Notes under the pieces: model-generated
Told to the model about the DNA's origin: nothing
What the model saw: the letters and a program-made list of their open reading frames with translations, nothing else
Databases searched by the model: none
Made by a program: the position numbers and the translations under genes
Shown: piece after piece, positions 28,666 through 63,977 of the stretch
Layout of the letters: every line of letters starts with the position of its first letter
How positions within the stretch are numbered: the stretch's first letter is position 1
Origin: Candidatus Levyibacteriota bacterium
Lineage (GTDB): Bacteria; Patescibacteriota; Microgenomatia; Levybacterales; UBA12049
Length of the DNA stretch: 64,000 nt
Assembly (NCBI GenBank): GCA_030651475.1
Contig: JAUSEW010000027.1
Span: 41,553 to 105,552, forward strand
Direction: 5' to 3'

Positions 28666-29390
28666 AAAATATTATCGAAAAATTAAAGATTTACGGTCCC
28701 AAAACTTTTTTTTCATTCGCTATAAGCGAATTAAGAAATAAATTATTAATGCAATTAATAAAAGGATCTTATAGCCAGAAGGGCGAAGATTTGATAATCG
28801 ATAAGCTTCTCGAAAATAAAAAAAGAGGTTTCTATGTAGACGTAGGAGCTTATGATCCGAAACGCTTTAGCAATACCTATCGTTTTTACCAAAAGGGATG
28901 GCGCGGAATAAATATAGAACCAGATACACTTAATTACGAAAAGTTTTTAGCTGAAAGGAATAGAGATACAAATCTTAATATTGGAGTGGGAAATGGGGAA
29001 TCGAGTTTGGTTTTTTATAAATTTGTTCCGGATACGCTTTCTACATTTTCGAAAAAAGAGGCAGGGGAGTACAAAAAACAAGGATACAGATTGGTAGACA
29101 CAATAAAAGTTAAAATAGAGAGTCTTTCTAGTATATTTTCAAAATATTGCAAAAACAAAAAGATTGATTTTATTTCTGTGGATACAGAGGGTTATGATTT
29201 GGAAGTGCTTAAAAGCAACGATTGGGATAAATTTAGGCCGACTCTAATATGTGTCGAATCATTTGAACACCATAAAGGCGGGGGAAAAGCTATAGAATAC
29301 GATTACATAGAGCCTTTTTTGTCTAAAGTTGGATATAAGAAAGTTTTTGAAAACGGACTAAACTGTATCTACACGCTTAAAAGCGTTTAA
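28662..29390 (+). CDS. FkbM-family methyltransferase
   Basis: FYVDVGAYDPKRFSNTYRF (DVGAxxG-type) motif typical of FkbM methyltransferases. Confidence 0.65.
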   Translation: MKNIIEKLKIYGPKTFFSFAISELRNKLLMQLIKGSYSQKGEDLIIDKLLENKKRGFYVDVGAYDPKRFSNTYRFYQKGWRGINIEPDTLNYEKFLAERNRDTNLNIGVGNGESSLVFYKFVPDTLSTFSKKEAGEYKKQGYRLVDTIKVKIESLSSIFSKYCKNKKIDFISVDTEGYDLEVLKSNDWDKFRPTLICVESFEHHKGGGKAIEYDYIEPFLSKVGYKKVFENGLNCIYTLKSV

Positions 29391-40231: not shown

Positions 40232-40870
40232 TCATCTCCTCACCCCTTTTTTATTATAATTATCTATATCGGCTTGTTTAAAAAATTTAACTCCCACATA
40301 ATATTTATTACCTTTATCTACAAAATAACCATAGGAGCGATCTTTAAAAGTACAAGCCCGTAATCTGTATATGGTCTCCTTATCAAATTCCTGAAAGCTA
40401 GTTATTTCTTTTTTCCAATGATAAGTACCTTTTCCAATCTGTGGCTTACTCTCGATTTTACCCATCTTAATTTTTGGCCAGACATCAATGAATAATTTAA
40501 ACATTTCTTTATTGATTCTCTCTTCCAGGTCGCTTGCTATATCCGTAGGATAAACCTTGACCTCCTTTTGGGCGATAACTTCTCCTTTGTCAACCTGTTC
40601 ATTCACATAATGGATTGTTACCCCCGCTGGTGTACCGTCAATTAAAGGCCAAATATGAGTATGCACACCCCTATTGTATGGGAGATAGCCTGGGTGCAGA
40701 TTTATTGTTGGTACCCTTAACTGATCTTTGGTTAATATTTTATCGTAGTATGCCACGATACGAAAATCAGGATCTTTACTGACAATAGTTTCTCCCTGTT
40801 GTTTTAAATAATCTTTAACCTGCTGACCTATTGGTTTGATTGATAAAACTTGAATTTTCATAATGAGCAC
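40232..40870 (-). CDS. Sugar N-formyltransferase (Fmt/PurN/ArnA-N-terminal-domain family)
   Basis: INLHPGYLPYNRGVHTHIWPLIDGTPAGVTIHYVNEQVDKGEVIAQ carries the Asn/His/Asp formyltransferase catalytic signature. No tRNA-binding C-terminal domain (212 aa), as in sugar N-formyltransferases. Confidence 0.7.
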   Translation of the reverse strand: MLIMKIQVLSIKPIGQQVKDYLKQQGETIVSKDPDFRIVAYYDKILTKDQLRVPTINLHPGYLPYNRGVHTHIWPLIDGTPAGVTIHYVNEQVDKGEVIAQKEVKVYPTDIASDLEERINKEMFKLFIDVWPKIKMGKIESKPQIGKGTYHWKKEITSFQEFDKETIYRLRACTFKDRSYGYFVDKGNKYYVGVKFFKQADIDNYNKKGVRR

Positions 40871-49700: not shown

Positions 49701-50111
49701 GTTAATTTTGTCAGTACGAATACAAATGTTCAAGATACTCGGGTTGGGAATATCTCCTATAGACAGCTTGACCCTACGAAATATATTGTTTCCGTTCATA
49801 ACGCAGCTACTCCATATGTCTTGTCGTCTAGGATCGGATACGATGCTGGTTGGAAAGCTCTTGTTCTTGATTCATCCAAATCGCAAAATAATAGCAGTTT
49901 TGCTACTGCTTTATTCCAGAATGGGCTACAACAAATTACTCCTTATAAGACAAACACTTTTGCCAACGCTTGGTATATAAATAAAAAAGGGAGTTATGAT
50001 GTGCTTATAGAATATGAGCCGCAGCGATTCTTTTACATTGGCGGGTTAATTTCTCTGATTTCTTTCCCGCTTTTGGCATCACTATTTATTTTTAAAGGAA
50101 AAAAACAATGA
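46713..50111 (+). CDS. Large (1132 aa) YfhO-like GT-C membrane protein: N-terminal multi-TM domain, ~600 aa extracytoplasmic beta-rich domain, C-terminal TM anchor
   Basis: About 13 TM helices in the first ~470 aa. The C-terminal GYDAGWKALVLDSS...KGSYDVLIEYEP...TM motif is shared with 1..933 and 50482..52401. Confidence 0.45.
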   Translation: MSKIIKNSKFFEILFIFLISLTPFLWLRNGQVILGHDSGFRLDSFTYWLNLLYSWNPIPNFGSDWSIFKGFLITQLPEALFTTLTGSLGDGQLLTFIFWFFAIGLSMYIFVNSFHKDSKFWFLRIFASTFYMYNFFLLQAWFIAERAKFSIYIALPLCVLLLYKTLTKQISLWKGLFFFSLLLFFFNAGGAPTFLGSFFVSFAATLIYFAIRNFQKGGIRELTYALKVGILFLVGFIIVNAYWILPQAYLMFHNYSSSLVASGGINGIIGWEATISKNASLINLLRLQGIPDWYKNPIHPYSSFYLENVFLIGFSFLFPIILVGSLILIAAKGWKNHNRQLLLLILALFLIGIIFTAGSHPPTGFLYVLLIKYIPVFPIFRSSFYKFGVTFWFPAIFLISYGLYAILTNYIKNKKLYFLCSALAVVAILAFHFPYFSANFFTWNKPYSTRVKIPSYVATMSNYINTLPSSTRILLLPSLDPVFHADITDWNFWSLDLLPRLTTNKSIVADSAGAPPIIGNMYRAIELGNEEQFLRLAYISGVNKILWRDDAVYSNGTKVNAQLHYRENTIKSFHSLRLLKQEGKWRLYDIAFAKLPMDFFVPDNISVNSKYNSYQGQLMAEKSTTGSALLEDAKFSLGNVVNKQYIQANCVLCEMHAFENIAARIDVPQLRLLPNSKLYFLVKAKEYIGLLRTKGYEARALTDMIYSYRRIAEINNLLRKNNDDHNFNQEVFSNISRFKKNINNALAEANLLSVEKRNDLLIRIYAYLYHENSSTNSFIHNSQANAAIDNLELFIVQKMNMLENTIWMTKDKTDKKYFVDIPFAGNYSLVFTNIGQVTPSEIYLDGERINAQDARMEKGTHKLEVIYSPLENMLVKPADGELSFNIPNGEKERFTLKPLSRANLYTVSFDYRFNSGIPPNIKITQDAIESDNKYELTRKDGELLSAEGTWNRYEYIVGGDPNSKNFSLDFLICCKNGKNSNFTIKNLNVAQLFEPGVNFVSTNTNVQDTRVGNISYRQLDPTKYIVSVHNAATPYVLSSRIGYDAGWKALVLDSSKSQNNSSFATALFQNGLQQITPYKTNTFANAWYINKKGSYDVLIEYEPQRFFYIGGLISLISFPLLASLFIFKGKKQ

Positions 50112-50485
50112 AAAGATTACTAAATTTATTTTTAAATTTGTCTAAGAAAACGGAAAAAGTTACTTCTGAATATCAGGGGAGACTTTTATTCTTGATGATT
50201 ATCCTTTTAACTCTAACTGTTTTTGCAAATTTACCTTATTTTAATATTCTACTAACAATCTCTAACATTATATGGATTATGATTTTGGTTTCTTTATTCA
50301 TTTTTCGAATACGGATGAAAAATTTATTATTGATAGCGATTATTCTTATTGGAACTGCTCTAATCAGCGTTTTAGCTGATAATCGAGAAGTGGCGGAAAT
50401 TTTAGGAAATTCGATTTACCTTATCTTAATCATAGTTTTTACTTCCAATTTCGTTGAATATTTAAAAGAAATTAAAAAATCATGA
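50108..50485 (+). CDS. Small polytopic membrane protein (3-4 TM), unknown function
   Basis: 125 aa, mostly hydrophobic. ATGA-coupled between the two YfhO-like genes. Confidence 0.35.
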   Translation: MKRLLNLFLNLSKKTEKVTSEYQGRLLFLMIILLTLTVFANLPYFNILLTISNIIWIMILVSLFIFRIRMKNLLLIAIILIGTALISVLADNREVAEILGNSIYLILIIVFTSNFVEYLKEIKKS

Positions 50486-52401
50486 TGTTTAATTTTCCTT
50501 TCCTTGATTGGTTTTCTCAGAAAATAATCGTGGGCGGAGATTGGCGGTTTTTTTGGCCGGAAAACATTGGTGACTTCGTTACCTTTCCGACCGCCTGGGA
50601 TGCAAGTCTAAATACAGGTTTAGGTTCTCCATCTTTTAGCCTCATGTGGATAAATACTTATCTCAATTTTACTGCCGTATTTAGCAAGCTTGGTCTATCA
50701 TGGAATTTAATCGGTTTGTTATTTTGGATGCTGCCTGCCATAGCTCTGTCCTTTTTTTCCGCTTTTTATTGTTTCAAATATCTTTTTCCAAAAAGAACAA
50801 AATATGGGATTCTGGCTGGGATTATTTATCTCTTTAACACGTATTTCCTGATGGTATTTACCGGAGGCCAATTGGGTATCTCTCTGGCTTATTCCATCGC
50901 TCCTTTTGTATTTTTAACTTTCACAAAAAGCATAGATAATCCGACTTTTAGAAAAAGTTTGTTTTCTTCTTTGGTACTCGGATTACAAATGCTTTTTGAT
51001 CCAAGGTTGGTATATATAACCTTCATAGCAATATTCATTTATTGGCTATTTAACATAAAAAATATGAAACAGGTAATTTTTGCTTTCGTTCTTCCTTTTC
51101 TAATAGGATTCATGCTCCATAGCTATTGGATTGTTCCTCTAATCTTGACAAGATCATCTTCCATACAGGCGGGCTTTACTAGCTTGTTGGGGTTAAGATT
51201 TTTTAGTTTTTCTGATTTCTCACACTCTTTATCTTTTCTTCATCCAAATTGGCCGGAAAATATATTCGGTAAAGTATATTTCCTGAAACCTGAATTTTTA
51301 TTACTTCCAATACTGGCTTTTTCATCATTACTTTTTATTAAGAAAGAGACTAAGGAAAAGAAAAAAAATATATTATTTTTTGCAATTTTAGGATTACTTG
51401 GAGCATTTTTGGCAAAGGGAGCAAGCGATCCATTTGGTATAACATATGAGTTTGCGTTTCGATATATTCCTGGATTTGTTGCGTTTAGGGATCCTACGAA
51501 ATTCTATTTGCTGATATCTTTGTCTTACTCAATGCTTATACCCTTTGCGATCTTGTCTTTATCTAATTGGATTTCTTTACGATTCAAAATGAAAGGTTAT
51601 ATATCAAACGTCCTGTTAGTGGTTTCCATTTCTTACGTTTTGGTTTTGGCAAGTCCTGTTCTCGTGAGGCAATTTAATCGAATAGCTACGCCCCATATGA
51701 TACCTAATGACTACGTAGAATTAAAGAATTTCTTAGGCATCCAGCCTCAATTCTTTCGCACCCTTTGGATTCCTTCCATGCAAAGATTTGGTTTTTTTTC
51801 CAATAATCATCCTGCAATTTCGGGCATTAATAATTTTAACGCAAACGCACCTAAGGATTTTGATACATTTCTTAGTGAGGCCGCGGTTCAATACGTAATA
51901 GTACCGTACGATTCGGAAAAGGAGTTATTCTTAAAAGACAGGAAATATGATGAGAAGCAGTATGATCAAACGGTAAAGTCGTTAAGAAATATAGAATGGC
52001 TAAAGAAAATAGAGGGTTTTGGGAAAATTGCGGTTTTTGAAAACTCAAATTATAAAGATCATTTTTGGAGCCGTAACTCAAACCTTAAAATTAATTATAA
52101 GTATATTAATTCCACAAAATATTATGTTGATATTGAAAATTCCAAAAAAGGAGATGTTTTGGTATTTTCGGAGGGGTTTGATAAAAATTGGCAAGCGCAA
52201 ATTGACAGTAGTTTGATAAATTCAAAGCCCTATGATAAGCTCTATAATAGCTTTGTTTTGTCAAAGGGCGGAAGCTACACGGTTGAAGTTGTTTATTCTG
52301 TCCAGAAGTGGGTAAATATGGGATTAATTGTGAGTTTTGCTACCTTAACGATTTTGATAGGCAGTTTGCTATATATACAAATTAAAAATAAATATGATTA
52401 G
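50482..52401 (+). CDS. YfhO-like GT-C membrane protein (639 aa)
   Basis: Multi-TM N-terminal domain. C-terminal FSEGFDKNWQAQIDSS...KGGSYTVEVVYS...TM motif paralogous to 46713..50111 and 1..933. Confidence 0.45.
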   Translation: MMFNFPFLDWFSQKIIVGGDWRFFWPENIGDFVTFPTAWDASLNTGLGSPSFSLMWINTYLNFTAVFSKLGLSWNLIGLLFWMLPAIALSFFSAFYCFKYLFPKRTKYGILAGIIYLFNTYFLMVFTGGQLGISLAYSIAPFVFLTFTKSIDNPTFRKSLFSSLVLGLQMLFDPRLVYITFIAIFIYWLFNIKNMKQVIFAFVLPFLIGFMLHSYWIVPLILTRSSSIQAGFTSLLGLRFFSFSDFSHSLSFLHPNWPENIFGKVYFLKPEFLLLPILAFSSLLFIKKETKEKKKNILFFAILGLLGAFLAKGASDPFGITYEFAFRYIPGFVAFRDPTKFYLLISLSYSMLIPFAILSLSNWISLRFKMKGYISNVLLVVSISYVLVLASPVLVRQFNRIATPHMIPNDYVELKNFLGIQPQFFRTLWIPSMQRFGFFSNNHPAISGINNFNANAPKDFDTFLSEAAVQYVIVPYDSEKELFLKDRKYDEKQYDQTVKSLRNIEWLKKIEGFGKIAVFENSNYKDHFWSRNSNLKINYKYINSTKYYVDIENSKKGDVLVFSEGFDKNWQAQIDSSLINSKPYDKLYNSFVLSKGGSYTVEVVYSVQKWVNMGLIVSFATLTILIGSLLYIQIKNKYD

Positions 52402-53320
52402 TTTTGTTATTCCGGTTTTTAATGAGGAGGAAAGTCTTACCCCTTTTTATGAAGATTTAAAGTCTTCCCTTAAGGACAGGAAGGAATATGAGATTGTTTT
52501 TATTGACGATGGGTCAACTGATAAATCATTGCGAATATTAAAAGATCTGCATAGCAAGAATTCGAATATAAGAATTTTTTCGTTTAGAAAAAATCAAGGT
52601 AAGTCAGAAGCTTTAACATTAGGTTTTGGTAAAGCAAAAGGAGATTGTATAGTTACACTGGATGCGGATTTGCAGGATAGGCCTTCCGAAGCCCCAAAAC
52701 TTATAGAAAAGCTTAAAGAAGAAGATTTTGATCTTGCTTGCGGATGGAGAAAGAATAGGAAAGATCCATTGCGTAAAGTTATCTCTTCCAAATTCTTTAA
52801 CTTTCTTGCTTCGTTTTTCTGGGGATTAAAACTTCATGATTACAATTGCGGACTGAAGGCATACGCAAAAGATGCTGCCAAAAGCTTAAGGCTTTATGGC
52901 GGGATGCACAGATTTATTCCTCTTCTTGTCCACGAGCAGGGATTTAAGGTTTGTGAAATGCCAGTTAACCATGACGAAAGGAAATACGGTAAGTCAAAAT
53001 ACGGTTTTTCCAAGCTTTGGAATGATTTACCGGATATATTCACTATGTTGTTTCTAACAAGATATAGTAAAAGACCCCTTCATTTTTTTGGTCCAATAGG
53101 ATTCATCTTTCTGACAATAGGAGGAGCGATTTTAGCATATCTCTTTGCGATTAAAATCATGGGTCAAGGCATCGGAGACAGACCATTATTGTTTCTCGGG
53201 ATGATTCTTGTTCTAAGCGGTTTCCAAGTTTTATTTACAGGATTTTTGGCAGATATAATAATAAATACTTCAAGTAAGGAAACTAAAGACTTTCCCATTA
53301 AGTATTCAAGCGAAAAATAG
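52394..53320 (+). CDS. GT2 polyprenyl-phosphate sugar synthase (GtrB/CsbB/ArnC-like) with C-terminal TM helices
   Basis: ISFVIPVFNEEESL...EIVFIDDGSTDKS...LDADLQDRPSE GT-A domain, with two C-terminal TM helices. Confidence 0.8.
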   Translation: MISFVIPVFNEEESLTPFYEDLKSSLKDRKEYEIVFIDDGSTDKSLRILKDLHSKNSNIRIFSFRKNQGKSEALTLGFGKAKGDCIVTLDADLQDRPSEAPKLIEKLKEEDFDLACGWRKNRKDPLRKVISSKFFNFLASFFWGLKLHDYNCGLKAYAKDAAKSLRLYGGMHRFIPLLVHEQGFKVCEMPVNHDERKYGKSKYGFSKLWNDLPDIFTMLFLTRYSKRPLHFFGPIGFIFLTIGGAILAYLFAIKIMGQGIGDRPLLFLGMILVLSGFQVLFTGFLADIIINTSSKETKDFPIKYSSEK

Positions 53321-53566: not shown

Positions 53567-54124
53567 ATGAAAATAGGAATTGACGTTTCACAGCTTGCTT
53601 TTGAGGATACTGGAGTAGCGAATTATCTTTCGAATTTAATTAAGCATTTATTAGCTACAGATAAGAAAAATCAGTATATACTGTTTTATTCATCATTGAG
53701 GAGAAAATTTCCCCACTTCGCCAAGGCTTCCCTCGACTACGCTCGGGACAAGTCGGCGGGCAAGCAAAATTTCAAAATAAAGAGTTTTAGATTTCCGCCT
53801 ATGCTTTTGGATTTACTTTGGAATAAACTTCATATGGTGCCGATAGAGTGGCTGATTGGGGATGTTGATATTTTTATAACTTCTGACTGGACAGAACCGC
53901 CAACTAGAAAAGCGAAGAAAGCTACGATTCTATACGACTTAATTGTCTATAAATATCCGAACGAAACTGATAATAAAATTGTTGAGACACAAAAAAGAAA
54001 GCTTAAGTGGGTTAAAAAAGAGTCTGACATGGTTTTTTGCATATCTGAATCAACTGCAAAAGACGCGGAAGAGGTTTTAGGCATTGATAAAAATAAATTA
54101 AGGATTATTTATCCGGGAATTTAA
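53567..54124 (+). CDS. GT4 N-terminal-domain-only ORF: truncated paralog of the downstream GT4 (possible pseudogene or split GT-B)
   Basis: MKIGIDVSQLAFEDTGVANYL... parallels MIIGIDGNEANVEKRVGIGEY... of the next gene. Ends ...RIIYPGI* exactly where the paralog continues ...VTYPGIKEEL... into its C-domain. Confidence 0.4.
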   Translation: MKIGIDVSQLAFEDTGVANYLSNLIKHLLATDKKNQYILFYSSLRRKFPHFAKASLDYARDKSAGKQNFKIKSFRFPPMLLDLLWNKLHMVPIEWLIGDVDIFITSDWTEPPTRKAKKATILYDLIVYKYPNETDNKIVETQKRKLKWVKKESDMVFCISESTAKDAEEVLGIDKNKLRIIYPGI

Positions 54125-54128
54125 CATT

Positions 54129-55268
54129 ATGATTATTGGAATAGATGGTAATGAGGCGAATGTTGAGAAAAGAGTGGGGATTGGGGAATATGCGTTCGAA
54201 CTGCTTGAGCAATTCGAGAAATTTAGAATTCAGAATTTAGAATTCAGAATTTATTTGAAAAATGAGTCAATAAACGATATGCCGAAAGAAAGAAAGGGAT
54301 GGCAATATCGTGTAATCGGGCCAAGAAAGCTTTGGACTCAATTTGGTTTACCTCTGGATTTATTTTTTCATAAACCAAGACCTGATGTTTTTTTTACGCC
54401 TACTCATTACGCGCCTCGTTTTTCTCCGGTACCAACCGTAATATCCATAATGGATTTGTCTTACGTTCACTTTCCAAAACTTTTTAAAAAATCAGACTTG
54501 TATCAGCTGAAAAATTGGACAGCTTATTCGGCAAAAAATGCGAAAAAAATCTTAACTATCAGTAAATTCAGCAAAGATGATATAATCAAAACATATCAAA
54601 TACCAGGAGATAGGGTTGTGGTTACGTATCCTGGAATTAAAGAAGAATTAGGAATTATGAATCAAGTTTACCCTGAGCAAAGTCGAAGGGAATCAAGCGA
54701 ACTTCAAAGCAAGTATGGAATTAAGGGGAAATATATTTTGTTTGTAGGAACGTTACAACCAAGAAAGAACATTATTCGTTTGATCGAAGCATTTAGTAAA
54801 ATTTCCTTAATCCTTAATCCTTTATCATTAATCATTATCGGTAAGAAGGGGTGGATGTATGAAGAAATTTTGGAAGCGCCAAAAAAGTTTAACATTGTAA
54901 ATAGAGTCAAATTCTTGGAATTCGTGTCCAACGAAGACCTTCCGTTTTTATACCAAAACGCAGAGTGTTTTGTCTTGCCTTCGCTTTATGAAGGATTTGG
55001 TCTGCCGGTTTTGGAAGCAATGAGATATGGGTGCCCTTGCGTTATTAGCAACATTAGCAGTTTGCCTGAAGCAGGCGGAGATGCGGCTTTTTATTTTGAT
55101 CCAAGTAACGCATCAGATATTGCTGCGAAAATAGAAATGGTTTTAAATGACGAAAAATTAAGAAAAGAAATGATAGAAAAAGGTTATAAACAGGTTAAAA
55201 AGTTTAGCTGGGAAAAAACAGCACAAGAGACGCTGAAGGTCTTGGAGGAAGTAGCAAGAAATGGATAG
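54129..55268 (+). CDS. Glycosyltransferase, GT4 family
   Basis: EGFGLPVLEAMRYGCPCVISN motif and full two-domain GT-B layout. Confidence 0.8.
   Translation: MIIGIDGNEANVEKRVGIGEYAFELLEQFEKFRIQNLEFRIYLKNESINDMPKERKGWQYRVIGPRKLWTQFGLPLDLFFHKPRPDVFFTPTHYAPRFSPVPTVISIMDLSYVHFPKLFKKSDLYQLKNWTAYSAKNAKKILTISKFSKDDIIKTYQIPGDRVVVTYPGIKEELGIMNQVYPEQSRRESSELQSKYGIKGKYILFVGTLQPRKNIIRLIEAFSKISLILNPLSLIIIGKKGWMYEEILEAPKKFNIVNRVKFLEFVSNEDLPFLYQNAECFVLPSLYEGFGLPVLEAMRYGCPCVISNISSLPEAGGDAAFYFDPSNASDIAAKIEMVLNDEKLRKEMIEKGYKQVKKFSWEKTAQETLKVLEEVARNG
54219..54254. repeat. About 2.5 copies of a 14-bp tandem repeat (AATTTAGAATTCAG-like) inside the GT4 CDS
   Basis: aaatttagaattca gaatttagaattca gaatttat read directly from the sequence. 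Encodes FRIQNLEFRIY. Confidence 0.7.
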
Positions 55269-55812
55269 AATAATCAGAAGAATAAATACGGTTTTACTGG
55301 AATTTGAAATTATGCTGCTTCATATCGTTGGGATTATTCCTTCGCATTGTATACGCAGATTTTTTTATAGGCTGGCGGGAATTAAAATAGGTCGTGGATC
55401 TACCATCCATACAGGAGCAAGATTTTATAATCCTGCCAACATTGAAATAGGGGAAGATTCGATAATTGGGGAAGGAGCGGTTTTGGATGGCCGTGATAAG
55501 CTAATTATAGGTAATCATGTTGATATAGCCTCGGAAGTTATGATTTACAATTCGGAACATGATTTGGCAAGCAATGATTTTCACGCCATAACAGGAAAAG
55601 TTGCGATAGGTGACTACGTTTTTATCGGGCCAAGAGCGATTATTCTTCCGGGGGTAACTATTGGTAAAGGAGCGGTTGTTGGCGCAGGAGCGGTTGTGAC
55701 GAAAAATGTTGACGAAGGCTCAATAGTTGGCGGAGTTCCGGCAAAGCCCATTGGCCTAAGAAATATAAAGGATTTAAATTATAAACTTGGCAGGGCTGCT
55801 TGGTTTAGATAA
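55261..55812 (+). CDS. Hexapeptide-repeat (LbH) acetyltransferase (WcaF/maltose O-acetyltransferase-like)
   Basis: IGNHVDIASEVMIYNSEHD...IGDYVFIGPRAIILPGVTIGKGAVVGAGAVVTKNV repeats. Confidence 0.75.
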   Translation: MDRIIRRINTVLLEFEIMLLHIVGIIPSHCIRRFFYRLAGIKIGRGSTIHTGARFYNPANIEIGEDSIIGEGAVLDGRDKLIIGNHVDIASEVMIYNSEHDLASNDFHAITGKVAIGDYVFIGPRAIILPGVTIGKGAVVGAGAVVTKNVDEGSIVGGVPAKPIGLRNIKDLNYKLGRAAWFR

Positions 55813-55827
55813 AAGATAACAAAGTAA

Positions 55828-56715
55828 ATGGTGGAATTATCAATAATTATACTTAATTACAAGACTTCAGACTTAACAATTGCCTGTCTTAAATCTATAA
55901 TTTCCAAATTCAACAAAGAGCTGGAGTTCGGTAGATTCGAAATAATAGTCGCGGATAATGGCTCCAAGGACGCTTCGGTAGAAAGTATTAAGTATTATGT
56001 ATCAAGTATTAAGTATAAAAATATTAAAATTTTAGAAAATAAAGAAAACTTGGGTTTTGCCAAAGGAATGAATAAGGCATCGCAAAACGCAAAAGGAAAA
56101 TATCTGCTATTTCTAAATTCCGACACTGAAATGCTTGATAAAGGACTTACGGACATGATTGAATTTTTGGATTCTAACAAAAAAGTTGCCATTTTAGGCG
56201 GAAAGTTTATGAATAAAGATGGTTCGCTCCAGCCATCCTGCGGAAAATTCTATACGCTTTTTAATCTTTTTCTAATGCTTATCGGCACAGAAAGGCTTGG
56301 GTTTCTGCGTGAGAGCCCATCTATTGTTAAAAAAGTTGATTGGGTAAGCGGGGGATTTATGATGGTAAAACGCGATATATTCAAAAAATTGGGTTGTTTT
56401 GACGAGAATTTCTTTATGTATATGGAAGATATGGATATTTGCTATAGAGCGAAAAAAGAAGGTTGGGATACGTATTTTTTCCCCAGAGCTTGCGTAGTTC
56501 ATAATGGGCATGGAAGCAGCAGCAGGACATTTGCTATAATTAATATATATAAGGGTATTTTGTATTTTTACAAAAAACACAACAGCTATTGGCAGTATAT
56601 TTTAGCCAGGACGTTACTTACTGCGAAGGCAATAACTGCAATCTTTTTTGGGTTCCTAACTAACAATATCTATCTTAAAAATACCTACAAAAGCGTTATA
56701 AGAATCGAGCTATGA
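55828..56715 (+). CDS. Glycosyltransferase, GT2 family
   Basis: LSIIILNYKTSDLT...EIIVADNGSKD...GFAKGMN...FLNSDTEM motifs. Confidence 0.75.
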   Translation: MVELSIIILNYKTSDLTIACLKSIISKFNKELEFGRFEIIVADNGSKDASVESIKYYVSSIKYKNIKILENKENLGFAKGMNKASQNAKGKYLLFLNSDTEMLDKGLTDMIEFLDSNKKVAILGGKFMNKDGSLQPSCGKFYTLFNLFLMLIGTERLGFLRESPSIVKKVDWVSGGFMMVKRDIFKKLGCFDENFFMYMEDMDICYRAKKEGWDTYFFPRACVVHNGHGSSSRTFAIINIYKGILYFYKKHNSYWQYILARTLLTAKAITAIFFGFLTNNIYLKNTYKSVIRIEL

Positions 56716-59700
56716 AAATATTACGTTTCATTTCGAATAATTTTTTGTTTCTGATTACTCTTTTTCTGCTGGCGTTTATTCCTCTTTATCCCAAACTGCC
56801 TATTGTTAATGTACAGCATACCTGGGTTTATATCCGCGCAGAAGACTTTATCGTTACGCTTGTTGTTATTCTATGGATTTTCTTACTCTTGCTTAAGAAA
56901 GTTACGCTAAAAACCCCGCTTACCTTACCTATAATATTATTTTGGCTTGCTGGCGGAATAGCAACTCTTCATGGGGTGCTTTTCATTTTCCCAACACTTT
57001 CGGACGTTTTTTCCAACGTAGCATTTTTAAGCTTTCTAAGAAGGATAGAATATATATTTTTATTCTTCATTGCTTTTACAAGCATAAAAGAAAAAAAGTT
57101 TATATCTTACGTTACTATTGGGTTGGCGGTTACGCTCCTTCTAGTTGTAGGATACGGTTTGGGGCAGAAATTTTTAGGATTTCCTGCGTATTTGACAATG
57201 AATGAAGAATTTGCCAAAGGAGTTCCTATTCAGCTGTCAGAGCTTTCTCGAATTCCATCTACATTTGCAGGTCATTATGATTTGGCAGCCTATTTGGTTT
57301 TGATAGTTCCTTTAATCACAAGTATGGTTTTCGGATTTAAAAACTGGTTTGTAAAGATGTTCTTATTGGGTACGGCAGCTTTGGGTTTTGTATTGCTTGC
57401 TATGACGGTATCTAGGGTTTCCTTTTTCGTACTCTTAATTTCTATGGTCGTGATGCTTATCTTGCAAAAAAAAAGACTGCTTATTATATCTTTATTTTTA
57501 ATAGTTATTGTATTTTTAAGCTTTTCTTCAAGTCTTCTGCAGCGGTTCGGAAATACTCTCAAAGAAGTAAACGTATTGGTTGACGTAAACACAGGGGGAG
57601 CGATAGGCGAAGTAAAAGAAGTTCCTGCTAAATATTTTGAAAATAAAATTGTCAAAAGACAATTTATCTCAAATGAAGAAGCTAAACTATCTAGTGCATC
57701 TGCAATTCTGCCTTTCTCATTAATTCCTCCTGTGGCATCTCTTATAGTAGAACCAAATAGTCCGACCGGAGAAAATTTGCCGCAAGGAACAAGCTACGTA
57801 AACCTTCCTCTTTCTCCCATTACCAAAAAAGTACAGCAGTTCTTTTATCAAAAATCTAATAATAGGGGGGGAATAATAGCAGAGGAAATAACTGTTTCCT
57901 ACGGAGACTTTGTGATGAAGAAAGCTTTGGCCTATGATCTTTCATTTACGACCAGATTTCAGGGAGAATGGCCAAAAACGCTACTGGCTTTTACTCGAAG
58001 CATTTTTTTAGGAAGCGGTTATGGATCAGTTAGCCTTGCCGTAGATAATAATTACTTGCGAATTTTGGGAGAAACGGGAGCATTTGGATTTATCTCTTTC
58101 TTATCGATTTTCTTAATTGCAGGCATATATATAAAAAAAATACTTCCAAACGTAGATTCCCCTATTGTCCGAAGCTTCATCTTAGGTTTTATCGCCGGTA
58201 CATTCGGATTATTATTAAATGCACTTCTTATCGATGTCTTTGAGGCATCGAAAATTGCTTTTACATACTGGCTTCTAATGGGAGTAACGCTTGGAACCTT
58301 AGAGCTATATAGAAAAGAAGAAATAGATCTTTATCAAAATTTCAAAAAAGTAGTAATTTCCACGTACGCAATTATTATTTATCTATTTACAATTATGATA
58401 GGATTATTCTCTTCTGCTTTCGGTTATTATTTTGTTGGCGATGACTTTACCTGGTTTAGATGGATTGTGGATTGCTATAGCGGAGCCATTAAAAATGGGT
58501 TACAACAATGTCAGCCTTTTGCCATAACGATTATTCAGTACTTTACGCAGGCTGATGGATTTTTTTACCGCCCGGGAGCAAAATTGTACTTTGATTTGAT
58601 GTATTCAGTATTTTGGCTTAATCAATCAATGTATCATTTCGTTTCATTTTTTCTTCATTTTTCCGTTGCAGTATTGGTATTCTTGATTTCTAAAAGGATT
58701 TTAAAAAATTATTTCTTGGCTATTGTTAGCGGCGTATTTTTTCTTATACTTAGCGGAGGATCTGAAGCGATTTTTTGGATTTCTTCTACGGGTTTTCTTT
58801 TTAACGCAATGTTCGCTCTTCTTGGATTACTCTTTTTTATTTATTGGAAGGAAAGAGGAAAAATAATTTACCTTGTTATTTCCTGCGTCTCCATTGCCTT
58901 AAGCTTATTATTTCACGAACTTGGAATTATGGCGCCATTTCTCGTAATTCTTTACGATACTGTTTTTGGAGAAAAATCCGCAGCAAATAAATTATCTAGG
59001 AAATCATCCTATCTATTTTTACTATCCCCAATTTTGCCCTATCTGATTTTACGCCTCGTAGCGGGAAGTCATTGGTTCAATGGTGACTATAGCTATAACT
59101 TACTTAAGCTTCCGTACAATATTATCGGCAATGCAATTGGATATATAATGCTTACTTTTTTTGGACCCGCATCCTTATCTTTTTATGAGGGGTTAAGGAA
59201 TTTCTCAAGAGCGCATTCAATATTTGCAATAGTAGCGTCACTTATTATGATTTTCCTTATTATTAAATTTTATCGACTGGTGGTTAAAAACATAGATTTG
59301 GAAGAGGAAAAAATTGTGACCTTTGGATTTTTGTTTTTCATATTAGCGCTATTACCGTTTCTAGGACTAGGCAACATTGCCTCTCGCTATAGTTATCTGT
59401 CTTCCTTTGGACTTATGATTCTTTTTGTATTCTTTCTCAAAAAAGCATATGGTTATTTACTTTTTAACGGTAAATATATCGCCATGTCAAGCGTAGTTTT
59501 AATAGCGATTATCTTTAGTATGGCGCAACTTTTTCAATTGCAAAAATTAAGTTCAGATTGGCGAGTAGCCGGTGAAAAGTCACAAAATTTTCTTATATCT
59601 CTTAATAAAGTTTATACGGAGGATTGGGCAAAGGAACACGTTCAATTGTATTTTGTTGATACCCCAATTCGAAACGGAGAAGCATGGATATTCCCCGTTG

Positions 59701-59870
59701 GGCTTCCCGATGCAATATGGCTTACTGTAAAAAACAATAATCTTTCAATTTTCCAGCCTTCAAATTTACAGCAAGCTTTAGATCAGGCGGGAACATCATC
59801 GAATGCAAAAGTTTTAAAGTTTGATAGCGATGGAAATATTACAGAAGTATTTAGAGTAAAAACACAATGA
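56712..59870 (+). CDS. Fusion membrane protein: N-terminal O-antigen polymerase/ligase-like (Wzy_C/WaaL-like) domain plus C-terminal GT-C-like multi-TM domain (1052 aa)
   Basis: Residues ~1-520: about 10 TM helices, a large extracytoplasmic loop, then VDNNYLRILGETGAFGFISFL (cf. the HNxYL..L.E.G..G Wzy_C signature). Residues ~540-1052: a second ~12-TM domain beginning FGYYFVGDDFTWFRW (DD motif), paralogous to 37458..39092. Confidence 0.5.
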   Translation: MKILRFISNNFLFLITLFLLAFIPLYPKLPIVNVQHTWVYIRAEDFIVTLVVILWIFLLLLKKVTLKTPLTLPIILFWLAGGIATLHGVLFIFPTLSDVFSNVAFLSFLRRIEYIFLFFIAFTSIKEKKFISYVTIGLAVTLLLVVGYGLGQKFLGFPAYLTMNEEFAKGVPIQLSELSRIPSTFAGHYDLAAYLVLIVPLITSMVFGFKNWFVKMFLLGTAALGFVLLAMTVSRVSFFVLLISMVVMLILQKKRLLIISLFLIVIVFLSFSSSLLQRFGNTLKEVNVLVDVNTGGAIGEVKEVPAKYFENKIVKRQFISNEEAKLSSASAILPFSLIPPVASLIVEPNSPTGENLPQGTSYVNLPLSPITKKVQQFFYQKSNNRGGIIAEEITVSYGDFVMKKALAYDLSFTTRFQGEWPKTLLAFTRSIFLGSGYGSVSLAVDNNYLRILGETGAFGFISFLSIFLIAGIYIKKILPNVDSPIVRSFILGFIAGTFGLLLNALLIDVFEASKIAFTYWLLMGVTLGTLELYRKEEIDLYQNFKKVVISTYAIIIYLFTIMIGLFSSAFGYYFVGDDFTWFRWIVDCYSGAIKNGLQQCQPFAITIIQYFTQADGFFYRPGAKLYFDLMYSVFWLNQSMYHFVSFFLHFSVAVLVFLISKRILKNYFLAIVSGVFFLILSGGSEAIFWISSTGFLFNAMFALLGLLFFIYWKERGKIIYLVISCVSIALSLLFHELGIMAPFLVILYDTVFGEKSAANKLSRKSSYLFLLSPILPYLILRLVAGSHWFNGDYSYNLLKLPYNIIGNAIGYIMLTFFGPASLSFYEGLRNFSRAHSIFAIVASLIMIFLIIKFYRLVVKNIDLEEEKIVTFGFLFFILALLPFLGLGNIASRYSYLSSFGLMILFVFFLKKAYGYLLFNGKYIAMSSVVLIAIIFSMAQLFQLQKLSSDWRVAGEKSQNFLISLNKVYTEDWAKEHVQLYFVDTPIRNGEAWIFPVGLPDAIWLTVKNNNLSIFQPSNLQQALDQAGTSSNAKVLKFDSDGNITEVFRVKTQ

Positions 59871-61339
59871 AAAAGCTTGAGACTCTTATTTTATTTTTAA
59901 TTCTCATAGGCGGATTTATAGTAAGATTTTATAATTTCAGTAGTCCTGTTGCGGATTGGCATTCGTGGCGTCAGAGCGACACGTCGGCAGTTTCCAGAAA
60001 TTTTATCAAGTTTGGTTTTGATATTCTGCATCCGCGCTTTGACGATTTATCAAATGGAGTTTCTTTAATAGATAATCCTAATGGACATAGATTTGTGGAA
60101 TTTCCTATTTATAATGTTTTTCAGGCAGGACTGTTTAAATTTTCTGCACATTGGACTTTGGAGGAATGGGGAAGAATTGTTACTATATTTTCTTCATTAA
60201 CTGCAGTTGTCTTTCTCTATTTATTGCTTAAGAAACATATCTCCGCTCGTGCAGGTTTGATAGGAGCATTCTTTTATGCTTTTGTTCCATATAACATTTA
60301 TTTCAGCCGAACTATTCTTCCGGATCCTTTGATGATCGCATTTTTCTTAGGAGGTTTATTCTTCTTTGACCAGTATCTGGATGGAAAATCTACCGGAGGC
60401 AAGTATACATATTATCTATTGGCAATAATACTAACCGCAGCAGCACTTCTTATGAAACCATTCGTGGTTTTTTTCTTTTTGGCATATTTGTATCTAATCT
60501 TTATGGAAAGGGGATTAGCGGGTTTTAAGAGGTTGGATGTATGGTTATTTTTTATTATTTCTATAGCGCCGTTTATTCTTTGGAGAGTGTGGATGCAGCA
60601 ATATCCGGAGGGAATTCCGCAGAGTAATTGGCTATTTAACGGAACAGGAATAAGATTTAAGGGAGCGTGGTTTTGGTGGATTTTTGCAGAAAGAATAGCG
60701 CGTGAGATGCTTGGATTTTGGGGATTGCCATTTGTCGTATTGGGAATGATAGCAAAGACAGGGAAGAAAGAAGGATGGTTCTTTTTAACCTTTGCTGCAT
60801 CATCTTTGGCTTATCTTACGGTTTTTGCCACAGGCAATGTTCAGCATGATTACTACCAAATTCTTATAGTTCCTGCTCTTGCTATATTTTTCGCAAAGGG
60901 AATTGACTGGGCGCTTTCTTTAGCTAGCGATCGTATGCAGTATTTAATTACATTATCCGTTATTACCGTAACTACATTATTTATGTTAATGTTTGGGTGG
61001 TTTGTGGTAAGAGATTTTTATTCGATACAGCATCCTTCTATAATTGAGGCCGGTCAGGCAGTTGATATGCTTACTCCAAAAGACGCAAAAGTTATCGCTC
61101 CGTACAATGGAGATACGACATTTTTATATTTCACAAAAAGACAGGGATGGCCTGTTTTTGAGAGGACGCTTAAAGAGTTTAAGAAAGCAGGAGCATCTCA
61201 TATCGCATTTGCCGATCCAACCAAAGAAGAATTAAATTTCCAAACGTTATTTAAACCGGTAGCTATAACAGCAACGTACGCAATATTCGATCTCAATAAG
61301 CCAACCCCGCAAGGCTTACTGGAACAGAAAAAGAACTAA
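59867..61339 (+). CDS. GT-C membrane glycosyltransferase, PMT_2/ArnT-like (GT39/GT83-like)
   Basis: VADWHSWRQSDTSAVSRNF after TM1 matches the D..HsWRQ.DT..iaRnf consensus of the PMT_2/ArnT-like family as I remember it. About 12 TM helices. Confidence 0.6.
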   Translation: MKKLETLILFLILIGGFIVRFYNFSSPVADWHSWRQSDTSAVSRNFIKFGFDILHPRFDDLSNGVSLIDNPNGHRFVEFPIYNVFQAGLFKFSAHWTLEEWGRIVTIFSSLTAVVFLYLLLKKHISARAGLIGAFFYAFVPYNIYFSRTILPDPLMIAFFLGGLFFFDQYLDGKSTGGKYTYYLLAIILTAAALLMKPFVVFFFLAYLYLIFMERGLAGFKRLDVWLFFIISIAPFILWRVWMQQYPEGIPQSNWLFNGTGIRFKGAWFWWIFAERIAREMLGFWGLPFVVLGMIAKTGKKEGWFFLTFAASSLAYLTVFATGNVQHDYYQILIVPALAIFFAKGIDWALSLASDRMQYLITLSVITVTTLFMLMFGWFVVRDFYSIQHPSIIEAGQAVDMLTPKDAKVIAPYNGDTTFLYFTKRQGWPVFERTLKEFKKAGASHIAFADPTKEELNFQTLFKPVAITATYAIFDLNKPTPQGLLEQKKN

Positions 61340-61340
61340 G

Positions 61341-62534
61341 ATGAAAATATTGCTCGTATCATCATTTTTGCCCTATCCTCTTTATTCCGGCGGGCACATC
61401 CGTTTATACAATCTCATAAAAGGTTTATCCGGAAAACACAAGATAACTCTTGTCTGCGAAAAAAGAGATTATCAAACAGAAAAGGATGTTTTGGAGGTAG
61501 AAAAAATTTGTGAAAAGGTAATAACGGTTGATAGAAGAAAACAGTGGTCTTGGCAAAATATAGCAGTATCAGGTTTCTCTATAAATCCATTTTTAGCAGT
61601 TGGCCACACGAATAATGATATGAGAAACAAAATTGGCGAATTATTAAGCAATACGGATTTTGATTTAATTCACGTTGAAACTTTTTACGTTTTGCAAAAT
61701 GTACCCCAGACTAAAATCCCTATTGTTCTAGCAGAGCATAATATAGAGCATTTAGTTTATGAGCGTTTTGCCAAAAATGCGCCCTTTTTTATAAAGCCGT
61801 TTCTGTATGTAGATATCGCTAAGATGAAATATCAAGAACAAAAGGCTTGGGATAGAGCAGGAAAGTTAATTGCGGTATCAAGTCAGGATAAAGAAATGAT
61901 GGGAAAAAGAAACGTTGAGATCGTATCAAACGGAGTAGACATTAATAAGTTTAAAGTTAGAAGTGAGAAGTCAGAAGTTGAAGGTTCTGAGAAGAGAATT
62001 TTGTTTATTGGCGATTTTAAATGGATAGAGAATAGAGATGCGGTCAAATGGATATTAAAGGAGATATGGCCTGAAATAAAATCAAAAATCAAAAATCAAA
62101 AATCAAAATTAATACTTTGGATAGTTGGGAGAAGGATTCCGCAAGAGATTAGAAATTTAGGAGGAGAAAATGTTATTTTTGATGAGAATGCTCCGGAAAA
62201 TACTAATTTAATTTACCAGAAAGCAGATGTATTGTTAGCGCCAATTCGAGTTGGAGGAGGAACAAGCTTTAAAATTCTGGAGGCAATGGCAAGCGGAGTG
62301 CCTGTTGTCACAACAGATCTTGGAAATTCGGTTAATGCACAAGCGGGCAGGGAAATTATTATTGCAGAAAATTCATCGGATTTTGCAAAAAAGACAATAG
62401 AAATTTTAACCAATAACAAGGCTTATATAGATATTGCAAATAACGCAAGAAAATTCATAGAAGAAAATTATACTTGGGAAAAAATTATTAAAAAATTAGA
62501 AGCGGTTTATGAGGAGGCAGTTAAAAATGATTGA
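61341..62534 (+). CDS. Glycosyltransferase, GT4 family
   Basis: GGGTSFKILEAMASGVPVVTTDLGN motif and GT-B layout. Confidence 0.8.
   Translation: MKILLVSSFLPYPLYSGGHIRLYNLIKGLSGKHKITLVCEKRDYQTEKDVLEVEKICEKVITVDRRKQWSWQNIAVSGFSINPFLAVGHTNNDMRNKIGELLSNTDFDLIHVETFYVLQNVPQTKIPIVLAEHNIEHLVYERFAKNAPFFIKPFLYVDIAKMKYQEQKAWDRAGKLIAVSSQDKEMMGKRNVEIVSNGVDINKFKVRSEKSEVEGSEKRILFIGDFKWIENRDAVKWILKEIWPEIKSKIKNQKSKLILWIVGRRIPQEIRNLGGENVIFDENAPENTNLIYQKADVLLAPIRVGGGTSFKILEAMASGVPVVTTDLGNSVNAQAGREIIIAENSSDFAKKTIEILTNNKAYIDIANNARKFIEENYTWEKIIKKLEAVYEEAVKND
62078..62105. repeat. (AAAATCA)x4 heptanucleotide tandem repeat inside the GT4 CDS
   Basis: aaaatca aaaatca aaaatca aaaatca read directly. Encodes KSKIKNQKSKL. 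Confidence 0.9.
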
Positions 62535-63432
62535 TTTATCAATAATAATCGTTAATTACAATACGAAGGTTTTTCTAAAGAATTTATTAGATTCGATTGA
62601 GAAGTCTATTTCAAAAAAGATTACCTATGAAGTTATTGCTGTTGATAATGCATCAACTGATGCTTCGGCATCAGCAATTTCCAATTTCCAATTTCCAATT
62701 TCCAATTTACGACTGATTATAAACAAAAAGAATTTGGGGTTTGCGAAAGCGAATAATCAGGGAATAAGAGCTTCACAGGAAAGCCGTTACCTTTTATTTC
62801 TAAATCCCGATACTTTGATGCAGGAAAATACAATTGAAGAAATGATTAAGTTTATGGACACACATGAAGACGCAGGCGCAGCTACGTGCAAAATCGTAAT
62901 GCCAAATGGAGAGATTGATGATGCAAGCCATCGGGGTTTTCCAACGCCTTGGAACTCATTTTCGTATTTTTCCGGTTTTTCAAAAATATTCCCAAAATCA
63001 AAATTATTTAGCGGGTACAATTTGGGATGGATGGATTTTGGGAAAGCGCATGAAATAGATGCCTGCGCAGGAGCATTTATGGTAGTAAGACGTTCAGCTG
63101 GAGAAGCGATTGGCTGGTGGGACGAAGATTATTTTTTTTATGGAGAAGATTTGGATTTTTGCTATATGTTAAAACAAAAAGGCTGGAAGGTTTATTACGT
63201 CCCGCAAGTTTGGATATTGCATTACAAAGGGGTTGCCGGAGGAATTAAGAAAATTTCGCAGAATATTAGTACGGCAGATTTGGAAACCAAAAGAAGAGCA
63301 ACCAAAGCAAGATTTTCTGCCATGAAAATCTTCTACAAAAAACACTATGAAAAAAAATATCCCAAAATCACAACCTGGCTTGTTAAGCTGGCAATAAACC
63401 TAAAATTACGTTTAGCTATGAAGAATGCGTAG
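62527..63432 (+). CDS. Glycosyltransferase, GT2 family
   Basis: LSIIIVNYNTKVFL...VIAVDNASTDAS...GFAKANN...FLNPDTLM motifs. The start is set at the ATGATTGA overlap (62527) rather than 62509. Confidence 0.75.
   Translation: MIDLSIIIVNYNTKVFLKNLLDSIEKSISKKITYEVIAVDNASTDASASAISNFQFPISNLRLIINKKNLGFAKANNQGIRASQESRYLLFLNPDTLMQENTIEEMIKFMDTHEDAGAATCKIVMPNGEIDDASHRGFPTPWNSFSYFSGFSKIFPKSKLFSGYNLGWMDFGKAHEIDACAGAFMVVRRSAGEAIGWWDEDYFFYGEDLDFCYMLKQKGWKVYYVPQVWILHYKGVAGGIKKISQNISTADLETKRRATKARFSAMKIFYKKHYEKKYPKITTWLVKLAINLKLRLAMKNA
62677..62704. repeat. (ATTTCCA)x4 heptanucleotide tandem repeat inside the GT2 CDS
   Basis: atttcca x4 followed by attt, read directly. Encodes SNFQFPISNL. Confidence 0.9.
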
Positions 63433-63434
63433 GT

Positions 63435-63977
63435 TTAAAGAGCTTTTTTCCATGTTTTTGCGTGTCTACCTTTCCCAAATTTATCAGGTAAGAACCCGTA
63501 ACTTTCATCACATACCCTATCGTAGAAACCCCAACTTGCTTTATATCGTGGTCCGCTATTGAGCACTAATTGTTTTTTTCCTAATTTTTTGGCTTCATTA
63601 CAGACTGCGGTGAATAGTTTTCTGCCAATACCTCCTCCCCTAAAAACTTCGCCCGAAACAAAATTATTCAATAACTCTATAGACAACTCAGGAGTAGTGT
63701 TGAAATGTCTAAGCATATCCGGATCGGGTTGAGAATAAGCAGTGCATCCTAAAACTTTTCCCGTCTCATCTTTTGCAACAAAATAAGTACGAGTTCTTCC
63801 GTATTGGTCTTGTCCGCCTTTCATATAGCGTTTTATGTCATCTATTTCATTTAGCAATATTTCACCAGCATCGCTTCTTACATGTTGTATCAATATTGGT
63901 TCTAGCTGAGCTATATCATTTTCCCCCAGGGGATGAATCTCTACATTTATAATTTTAGCTTGTTCTTCATTAGCCAT
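63435..63977 (-). CDS. GNAT-family N-acetyltransferase
   Basis: RGGGIGRKLFTAVCNEAKKLGKKQLVL acetyl-CoA-binding motif A region. Confidence 0.65.
   Translation of the reverse strand: MANEEQAKIINVEIHPLGENDIAQLEPILIQHVRSDAGEILLNEIDDIKRYMKGGQDQYGRTRTYFVAKDETGKVLGCTAYSQPDPDMLRHFNTTPELSIELLNNFVSGEVFRGGGIGRKLFTAVCNEAKKLGKKQLVLNSGPRYKASWGFYDRVCDESYGFLPDKFGKGRHAKTWKKAL

Follow-up and report, generated by a model that had tools for sequence, protein, structure and literature searches.

A WaaL-like module fused to a GT-C-like module in a conserved glycan operon of Microgenomates bacteria

A genuine fusion of two membrane modules

The 64-kb stretch of DNA analyzed here (the window) comes from an uncultivated Levybacteria bacterium of the candidate phyla radiation (CPR), a group that accounts for a large share of bacterial diversity, lives attached to other cells, and has an almost uncharacterized envelope biochemistry. 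One of its genes (56712..59870, + strand; ATG start, 1052 amino acids plus stop) encodes a fusion of two membrane modules. The first is a WaaL/Wzy_C-fold module (56712..58307, residues 1–532) with approximately 12 transmembrane (TM) helices and both ends predicted to be cytoplasmic, and the second is a GT-C module of the PMT/ArnT/OST type (58350..59867, residues 547–1052) with approximately 11–13 TM helices; they are joined by a basic, predicted cytoplasmic linker of 14 residues, LYRKEEIDLYQNFK (58308..58349, residues 533–546). The fusion is genuine and ancient, and it probably acts as a bifunctional extracytoplasmic glycan-assembly enzyme, both modules of which would work in succession on one glycoconjugate. 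Both parts are of known kinds and the component chemistry is familiar; what is new is the covalent pairing of two classes of lipid-carrier transferases, a His-to-Asp clade of WaaL-like proteins, and a GT-C subfamily that has not been modeled.

The open reading frame (ORF) was as described in an earlier note on this DNA, and the strings quoted there, VDNNYLRILGETGAFGF (residues 444–460) and VGDDFTWFRW (residues 575–584), were both found in its product. An open frame of 3.2 kb is far beyond chance in DNA with 35% G+C (32–37% throughout the window). Among 5.8 billion proteins searched, 1466 relatives were retrieved; the 120 best matches came from separate assemblies, were 989–1074 amino acids long, and covered 95–100% of the query with 59–100% identity. 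In species-representative genomes, the N- and C-terminal halves lay in a single unbroken frame of 946–1104 codons at 80 of 80 loci. Because independent assemblies agree in this way, the fusion is taken as genuine, and the view of the earlier note that it is a domain fusion rather than a missed stop held, as did the continuity of the frame across the junction when assemblies were compared. The probability that assembly or annotation merged two genes through a missed stop or a frameshift is negligible: a few database entries do resemble separate proteins of approximately 530 residues, but most of these are contig-edge fragments or carry single nonsense codons within conserved motifs. The fusion gene shares an ATGA with each of its neighbors: its ATG overlaps with the stop codon of the GT2 gene upstream (56712–56715), and its stop codon with the ATG of the PMT_2 gene downstream (59867–59870). 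Such overlaps are the usual sign of translationally coupled operon genes.

Distribution of fused and split forms

When each GTDB species was represented by one genome, relatives turned up in 506 of the genomes scanned, and 80 loci were retrieved. The lineages given in the record titles were Levy-, Gottesman-, Roizman-, and Woesebacteria, all of the Microgenomates group of Patescibacteria, and one locus (L033) lies on a closed 762-kb chromosome. Many operon-bearing records (L004, L006, L016, and others) are titled “uncultured Gammaproteobacteria bacterium” and one (L036) “Candidatus Pacearchaeota archaeon”; judging from the identity and synteny of the loci, these titles are probably placeholder or mis-binned labels. 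When an exhaustive HMMER search was run with the C-terminal half alone, 27 clusters (50% identity) of proteins of at least 900 residues matched at residues ~500–1030, and in a joint alignment the fusions extended down to 32% full-length identity to the query. Public annotation recognizes only one half at a time: the identical NCBI protein is called “O-antigen ligase family protein” and one JGI copy “protein O-mannosyl-transferase.”

Rare split orthologs are divided at the linker site, and two loci are true splits. On the 5.6-kb contig of L084, which carries GT2, Wzy_C, GT-C, and one more gene, a 528-residue Wzy_C gene and a 516-residue GT-C gene overlap in ATGAAAAATAA. In L085, the 507-residue Wzy_C gene ends in LHLYEKKAK followed by the stop codon, just past the last helix and the basic linker, and the 498-residue GT-C gene starts with MRKKQSSF, with a 20-nt overlap between the two. 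The gene order of L085 is that of the window (GT4N, GT4, acetyltransferase, GT2, Wzy_C, GT-C, PMT_2, GT4, GT2); a homopolymer indel is a less likely source of its split. In a rough neighbor-joining tree that carries no support values, the split forms nest among the fusions, beside P0130, a position that suggests that the fusion is old and has now and then come apart at the domain boundary.

Three other proteins of approximately 530 residues (P0121, P0122, and P0128; 41–45% identity) were rejected as split forms, as they trace to a contig-edge fragment (L082) and to nonsense-interrupted fusions (L081 and L083); the frame of P0122 is open up to the contig edge. In L083, a TAG (2991–2993) replaces the codon of the near-invariant E511 in the motif IDVFEASK, and in L081 a TAA (4–6) stands two or three codons past the E511 position. 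Both in-frame stops thus lie within three codons of E511, in the outer loop that precedes the last WaaL-like helix, and the C-terminal halves of the two lineages are only 37% identical to each other. These stops may be a coincidence, reflect pseudogenes or errors, or mark a second point of natural fission. A methionine before W520 was ruled out as an evolved start, because “MW” also occurs inside uninterrupted fusions of the same clade.

The WaaL-like half and its aspartate

The intact 1052-residue protein had no Pfam match at E ≤ 1, and against NCBIfam it gave only a weak IctB-family match (residues 46–255). On the cut fragment of residues 197–560, Wzy_C (PF04932) scored 29.9 bits in two pieces (~221–285 and ~420–464), against a gathering cut-off of 31.7; the match is split in two by an insertion of approximately 125–135 residues between the pieces. 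The Wzy_C match proposed as a check in the earlier note was therefore obtained on cut fragments, below the gathering score, and was absent from the intact protein. Among the best 120 homologs, 7 have a precomputed Wzy_C match, and the split N-terminal proteins of L084 and L085 also match; these relatives reach the gathering score. No fragment matched PglL_A (PF15864) or PglL_B in Pfam at E ≤ 10, and a profile of 42 fusions had no matches at E ≤ 10 among all PDB sequences. The predicted structure of the N-terminal half has the WaaL fold, a 12-TM bundle with an outer-loop domain. Within its large outer loop, the module carries a beta-rich insertion (57558..57938, +; residues ~283–409), for which no structural relative was found. 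The N-terminal half neither belongs to the SEDS family (FtsW/RodA/SpoVE) nor has its best structural match there.

The residues that matter for E. coli WaaL function, and conserved in PglL, are R215, R288, and H338 (PMC3643930). By motif comparison and MAFFT, with the E. coli K-12 numbering checked on the fetched sequence, their counterparts in the fusion would be the invariant R235 in MTVSRVSF (57414..57416, +), the invariant R415 in FTTRFQGEW (57954..57956, +), and the motif D445-N-x9-G456-x-x-G459 (58044..58088, +), which stands opposite H338-N-x9-G-x-x-G. Where E. coli WaaL reads LTQT-R215-ATL and SLGA-R288-LAMYE, the fusion reads MTVS-R235-VSF and SFTT-R415-FQGEW, and HL-H338-N-EIIEAGSLK-G-LM-G becomes AV-D445-N-NYLRILGET-G-AF-G. 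(An hhalign comparison of the family alignment with the single E. coli WaaL sequence gave a meaningless 42-column match and was replaced by the above.) Thus, the two conserved arginines of WaaL/PglL are present in the motif alignment (T-x-S-R and T-T-R-x-Q), whereas the essential histidine (H338; H349 in PglL) is not. The Wzy_C-type signature read from the sequence in the earlier note stood as far as the motif frame goes, with aspartate at the place of the essential histidine of the family. This aspartate occurred in all 139 fusions that matched the exact search pattern, as well as in 8 fusions missed by the pattern and in both split N-terminal proteins (relaxed pattern or MAFFT); the consensus is D-[N/S/G]-x-[Y/F]-x-R-x-x-[G/A]-E-x-G-x-x-G.

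In RodA, Asp262 has been proposed to abstract the proton of the acceptor hydroxyl, “analogous to His338 in WaaL,” and a juxtamembrane-helix arginine has been proposed as a common diphosphate-binding element (PMC10449877). Given the invariant aspartate and this proposed analogy, the WaaL-like half looks like an active enzyme with a carboxylate base. On its sequence features, it is a distinct clade that is neither canonical WaaL nor PglL.

A topology scheme for residues 1–800 was drawn from hydropathy, the positive-inside rule, and the helices of the structure model. It predicts both ends of the ~12-helix N-terminal half to be inside and the linker to be cytoplasmic, and the next helix then brings the motif GDDFTW outside. 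On this predicted topology, invariant residues make up 29% of outer-loop, 16% of TM, and 5% of inner-loop positions (outer versus inner loops, Fisher p = 4e−7), and all 27 invariant charged loop residues fall on the outer face, 19 in the N-terminal half and 8 in the C-terminal half. This pattern bears on the idea that one half is catalytically dead and serves the other as a scaffold, an acceptor-binding module, or a lipid-carrier-handling module. The missing canonical histidine of the WaaL-like half and the lack of a family match for the C-terminal half would fit such a role, but both halves are dense in invariant charged residues on the predicted outer face, the aspartate at the histidine position is invariant rather than degenerate, active SEDS enzymes use this same residue, and GDDFTW is invariant and kept in free-standing relatives of the C-terminal half. 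We consider a dead half improbable.

The GT-C half and its free-standing relatives

The predicted structure of the C-terminal half has a GT-C fold of the PMT/ArnT/OST class, closed by a small alpha/beta domain (residues ~968–1052); structure prediction returned the expected WaaL and GT-C folds for the two halves. Its most conspicuous motif is the invariant G576-D-D-F-T-W581 (58437..58454, +), located six residues past the first GT-C helix in the predicted first outer loop. There, it provides the conserved acidic residues of a first extracytoplasmic loop, at the position of the GT-C catalytic acidic pair. Among 147 proteins of at least 900 residues, GDDFTW was exact in 126 and a close variant in 4, and 17 were unmatched by the pattern. 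The other invariant residues of this half are R620, E685, H735-E736, R781, H787, D792, and R892-Y893.

Neither the query nor its close relatives matched PMT_2 (PF13231) or PMT (PF02366), and the PMT_2 match anticipated in the earlier note failed for the query itself. Among 1.8 billion representative proteins, the C-terminal half had 4814 relatives at E ≤ 0.001; many distant ones carry C-terminal TPR repeats, and three of the distant ones (P0258, P0260, and P0265; E 1e−15 to 1e−16 against the C-terminal half) reach the Pfam thresholds of PMT_2 or PMT. Through these, the C-terminal half is placed by transitive homology in a PMT_2-type branch of GT-C, in a subfamily that current models miss. Its best GT-C matches were Pmt4, Pmt2, and ALG12, all of which are monosaccharide transferases that use monophosphate donors.

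These relationships are relevant to a different division of labor, in which the N-terminal half would be a Wzy-type polymerase that joins repeat units linked to polyprenyl diphosphate by means of a SEDS-like aspartate base, and the GT-C half would transfer the finished chain en bloc to its final acceptor, as the oligosaccharyltransferases PglB and STT3 do; the ArnC-like GT2 of the operon (described below) would then serve only the neighboring PMT_2 GT-C. This explanation carries some weight but is unlikely, because the best GT-C matches transfer monosaccharides from monophosphate donors, the sequence relatives of the C-terminal half are PMT_2/PMT and not STT3, no chain-length regulator is seen in the conserved block, and the match to TIGR04370 is far under its cut-off.

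A free-standing paralog of the C-terminal half is encoded in the window itself (37458..39092, +; 544 amino acids), in a different GT2-GT4-x-GT2 block, and the string QQDEWIALGHIM that the earlier note had quoted from it is present. This protein has no Pfam match. Its collinearity with the C-terminal half, also noted earlier, was confirmed with a hidden Markov model (HMM) of that half (profile positions 17–424 of 513, E 3.7e−26), which sets D577/D578 opposite D32/E33; BLASTP aligned 116 residues with 32% identity (E 1e−11). The same HMM gave no score for the four Pfam PMT_2 proteins, the 639-residue protein, and the 1132-residue protein of the window. Elsewhere, members of the free-standing subfamily (P0170, P0177, P0178, P0186, P0193, P0204, P0211, and P0220) have their own methionine and one TM helix, followed by [Y/F]-F-x-x-D-D-F-x-W; one of the free-standing examples (L086) has GT2, GT4, and ABC-transporter genes as neighbors and lacks a Wzy_C partner.

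Such paralogs without a Wzy_C partner (37458..39092 and L086), together with the many GT-C genes of the window, which suggest several parallel pathways, could mean that both modules are active in independent pathways and that the fusion is a convenience of co-expression. However, the fusion is maintained from 100% down to 32% identity, the split genes stay adjacent and overlapping (in L085 with the same operon order), the 14-residue linker forces the two TM bundles together, and the whole operon is syntenic. We therefore give this explanation very little credence.

Proposed function and points against it

The explanation that we favor remains a bifunctional enzyme, in line with the suggestion of the earlier note that ligation or polymerization is coupled to a second transfer from a lipid-linked sugar, which these results support. 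In outline, the cytoplasmic enzymes of the operon (a Bac_transf protein for initiation, four or five GT4, two GT2, and an acetyltransferase) would build an oligosaccharide on polyprenyl diphosphate, which would then be flipped outward. In the WaaL-like module, R235 and R415 would bind the diphosphate and Asp445 would be the base that activates the acceptor hydroxyl, as proposed for WaaL His338 and RodA Asp262, so that the glycan would be moved en bloc either to its final acceptor (as by a ligase) or to another lipid-linked unit (as by a polymerase). The GT-C module, through D577-D578, would prime or decorate that acceptor or glycan with a single sugar, whose donor would be a polyprenyl-monophosphate sugar such as the ArnC-like GT2 would make, and the adjacent PMT_2 GT-C would add a further sugar. 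The fusion would hold both sites together in the membrane at a 1:1 stoichiometry. As for the first step, the aspartate and a weak match to TIGR04370, far below its cut-off, lean toward a polymerase, whereas a ligase is suggested by the arginines of the WaaL type and by the best structural match. The use of a polyprenyl-phosphate-linked donor by the GT-C module is a circumstantial suggestion drawn from the presence of an ArnC/PgfS-like GT2 among the operon genes. Because synteny is rigid across several Microgenomates candidate phyla, the end product is probably a glycan that is conserved and linked to the wall or to protein, as opposed to a variable O-antigen.

Several points weigh against this proposal. 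Neither half is claimed above threshold by Pfam or NCBIfam, and the profile search of PDB sequences was empty. Since the WaaL-like module lacks the essential histidine of WaaL/PglL, its chemistry may be different, and in principle it may even have no activity. Residues were equated by aligning motifs and not by superposing structures, and the model is least certain in the catalytic loops, where its pLDDT (predicted local distance difference test) falls below 50 at residues 411–447 and 590–599. The topology comes from hydropathy and the positive-inside rule and covers residues 1–800, and so does not extend to R892/Y893 or the C-terminal domain. The free-standing subfamily works without a Wzy_C partner, which means that coupling of this GT-C type is not obligatory. 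In the conserved block no flippase was identified, and only about half of the loci have the ArnC-like GT2 as a neighbor.

A bolder and rather doubtful extension sees in the fusion a “prime-and-ligate” machine that serves a glycoconjugate common to all Microgenomates. The PMT-like half would attach the first sugar, either to a serine or threonine in an envelope protein or to the cell wall, and the WaaL-like half, with its carboxylate base, would join the polyprenyl-diphosphate oligosaccharide onto that primer sugar in one pass. If this is true, a single polypeptide would do the work for which other bacteria use a polymerase, a ligase, and LCP-type attachment enzymes as separate proteins.

A natural fusion is a single stoichiometric object in which the coordination of en bloc and single-sugar transfer can be studied. 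The universal His-to-Asp swap would link WaaL-type ligases mechanistically to SEDS polymerases, and the C-terminal half with its free-standing relatives defines a GT-C subfamily missed by current Pfam and NCBIfam models.

Comparison with known systems

Compared with WaaL (from Cupriavidus metallidurans, PDB 7tpj/7tpg, and from E. coli K-12), every member of the fusion family has aspartate for His338, adds the beta-rich outer-loop insertion (~125–135 residues) and a C-terminal GT-C module, and scores below the threshold of Pfam Wzy_C; identity to WaaL is only 16%. CPR bacteria are usually described as having neither lipopolysaccharide nor lipid A genes, and on this ground the acceptor would not be lipid A-core, unlike that of WaaL. 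PglL, PilO/TfpO, and WsaB/WsfB are, like the N-terminal half, Wzy_C-type membrane enzymes, and transfer polyprenyl-diphosphate-linked glycans to protein hydroxyls; those of the WsaB/WsfB type (Gram-positive S-layer glycosylation) occur also in bacteria that have no outer membrane. For the fusion, a protein acceptor is no more than a possibility. A fusion to a GT-C module is not known for any of these O-oligosaccharyltransferases. PglL retains the R/R/H triad (PMC3643930), whereas the fusion has aspartate for the histidine and no PglL_A or PglL_B match in Pfam. As for RodA/FtsW of the SEDS family, the structural match of the N-terminal half is much weaker than that to WaaL, no sequence or Pfam link exists, and the operon of the fusion is a heteroglycan operon and not one for cell-wall synthesis.

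The C-terminal half differs from GT-C enzymes of the PMT/TMTC/ArnT kind in that it has no PMT_2 or PMT match, belongs to a separate subfamily, has no TPR or MIR domain, and is joined to a WaaL fold. In three-component systems, a GT2 polyprenyl-phosphate-sugar synthase works together with a GT-C transferase, and a glycoconjugate of the cell surface is thereby modified on the outer side of the membrane. The operon of the fusion likewise combines a GT2 synthase with one or more GT-C transferases, as in ArnC/ArnT, GtrA/GtrB/GtrC, CsbB/YfhO, and PgfS/PgfM1/PgfM2, but here the GT-C is covalently joined to an enzyme of the diphosphate-glycan class, and the synthase is adjacent in approximately half of the loci. 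By its sequence features, the fusion would work like the WaaL/PglL and PMT/ArnT types, but it reaches no Pfam threshold and lacks the defining histidine, and neither curated family formally includes it. The earlier note did not recognize this architecture from characterized systems, and our literature searches for a WaaL-fold and GT-C fusion found no description of one either.

Operon and genomic context

The fusion gene belongs to one of the most rigidly conserved glycan loci of Microgenomates, and the operon product is probably a core surface component of relevance to attachment, phage recognition, and envelope integrity. In the 80 loci, the order is near-fixed: (639-residue protein)-(ArnC-like GT2)-GT4 N-domain-GT4-acetyltransferase-GT2-fusion-PMT_2 GT-C-GT4-GT2-GT4. 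Upstream of the fusion in the window lie, all on the + strand, the multi-TM 639-residue protein (50482..52401), which has a large soluble domain and a C-terminal TM anchor and heads the operon in 35 of the 80 loci; a GT2 similar to ArnC, PgfS, AglJ, and PpgS (52394..53320), found within 8 kb of the fusion in 41 of the 80; an ORF of 185 residues that consists of a GT4 N-domain only (53567..54124), upstream of the full GT4 in 68 of the 80; that GT4 (54129..55268); a WcaF-like hexapeptide acetyltransferase (55261..55812); and a GT2 (55828..56715) that directly precedes the fusion in 60 loci. Downstream, also on the + strand, are the second GT-C of the operon (59867..61339; Pfam PMT_2, 5e−10, and PMT), a GT4 (61341..62534), and a GT2 (62509..63432). 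The PMT_2 gene is directly 3′ of the fusion in 71 of the 74 loci that are not cut by a contig end, and its product had no match among PDB sequences.

The GT2 at 52394..53320 matches ArnC (2e−46) and PgfS (2e−37), and also AglJ and PpgS, over nearly its full length, below the equivalog cut-offs; it is likely a polyprenyl-phosphate-sugar synthase that supplies donors to the GT-C modules. The window was searched for an initiating phosphoglycosyl transferase, for an LCP enzyme, and for a chain-length regulator, with negative results for all three. Beyond its right edge, long contigs continue with GT4, GT4, a ManC-like nucleotidyltransferase, a 224-residue initiating transferase of the Bac_transf family, and a DUF4012 protein. 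Among the 57 loci with enough flank, Bac_transf was found in 46, on the same strand at a median of 7.0 kb downstream and with 73% median identity, and the nucleoside-diphosphate-sugar pyrophosphorylase (the ManC-like nucleotidyltransferase) in 51. With Bac_transf downstream and the ArnC-like GT2, the operon would encode a route to diphosphate-linked donors and often also one to monophosphate-linked donors. In L088 (20186–22831) and L089 (20034–22733), the operon ends with Bac_transf, then a DUF4012 protein of approximately 650 residues, then RecO. A DUF4012 protein is downstream in 16 loci and could be a chain-length or export component.

The 639-residue protein has no Pfam, PDB-sequence, or meaningful NCBIfam match. 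Its N-terminal part has approximately 11 TM helices in a layout like that of YfhO/AftD-type GT-C proteins, and it could be GT-C-like or the missing flippase. The GT4 N-domain ORF, 188–189 residues long in L085 and L088, may be a split or helper subunit similar to Alg13/Alg14. A 180-residue ORF with no family match (63435..63977, − strand) breaks the operon of the window after the GT2 at 62509, an arrangement shared with one other locus; in most other genomes, a GT4 directly follows this GT2.

The whole window is devoted to glycan biosynthesis, with many GT2 and GT4 genes, sugar dehydratases, epimerases, and aminotransferases, as well as methyl-, formyl-, carbamoyl-, and acetyltransferases, and it includes a Wzx-like flippase gene (6568..7830). 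Seven GT-C modules are encoded (52..933, 9690..11876, 16097..18343 on the − strand, 25109..26740 on the − strand, 37458..39092, 58350..59867, and 59867..61339): four are Pfam PMT_2/PMT, one is a YfhO-type tail cut by the window edge, and two are of the DDF/DE-W subfamily. Seven GT-C modules in 64 kb of a genome under 1 Mb represent an unusually heavy investment in extracytoplasmic glycosylation. An 1132-residue protein (46713..50111) has a weak DUF5667 match, and forms of 1116–1129 residues are located upstream of a membrane protein of 520–640 residues in L086, L088, and L089; a second DUF5667 protein of 195 residues is encoded at 15513..16100 (− strand). Among the genes for unusual tailoring of sugars are those for an N-formyltransferase (40232..40870, − strand), a two-domain carbamoyltransferase (45011..46735), a C-methyltransferase (23820..25055, − strand), and an FkbM methyltransferase (28662..29390), which suggests highly modified amino-deoxy sugars.

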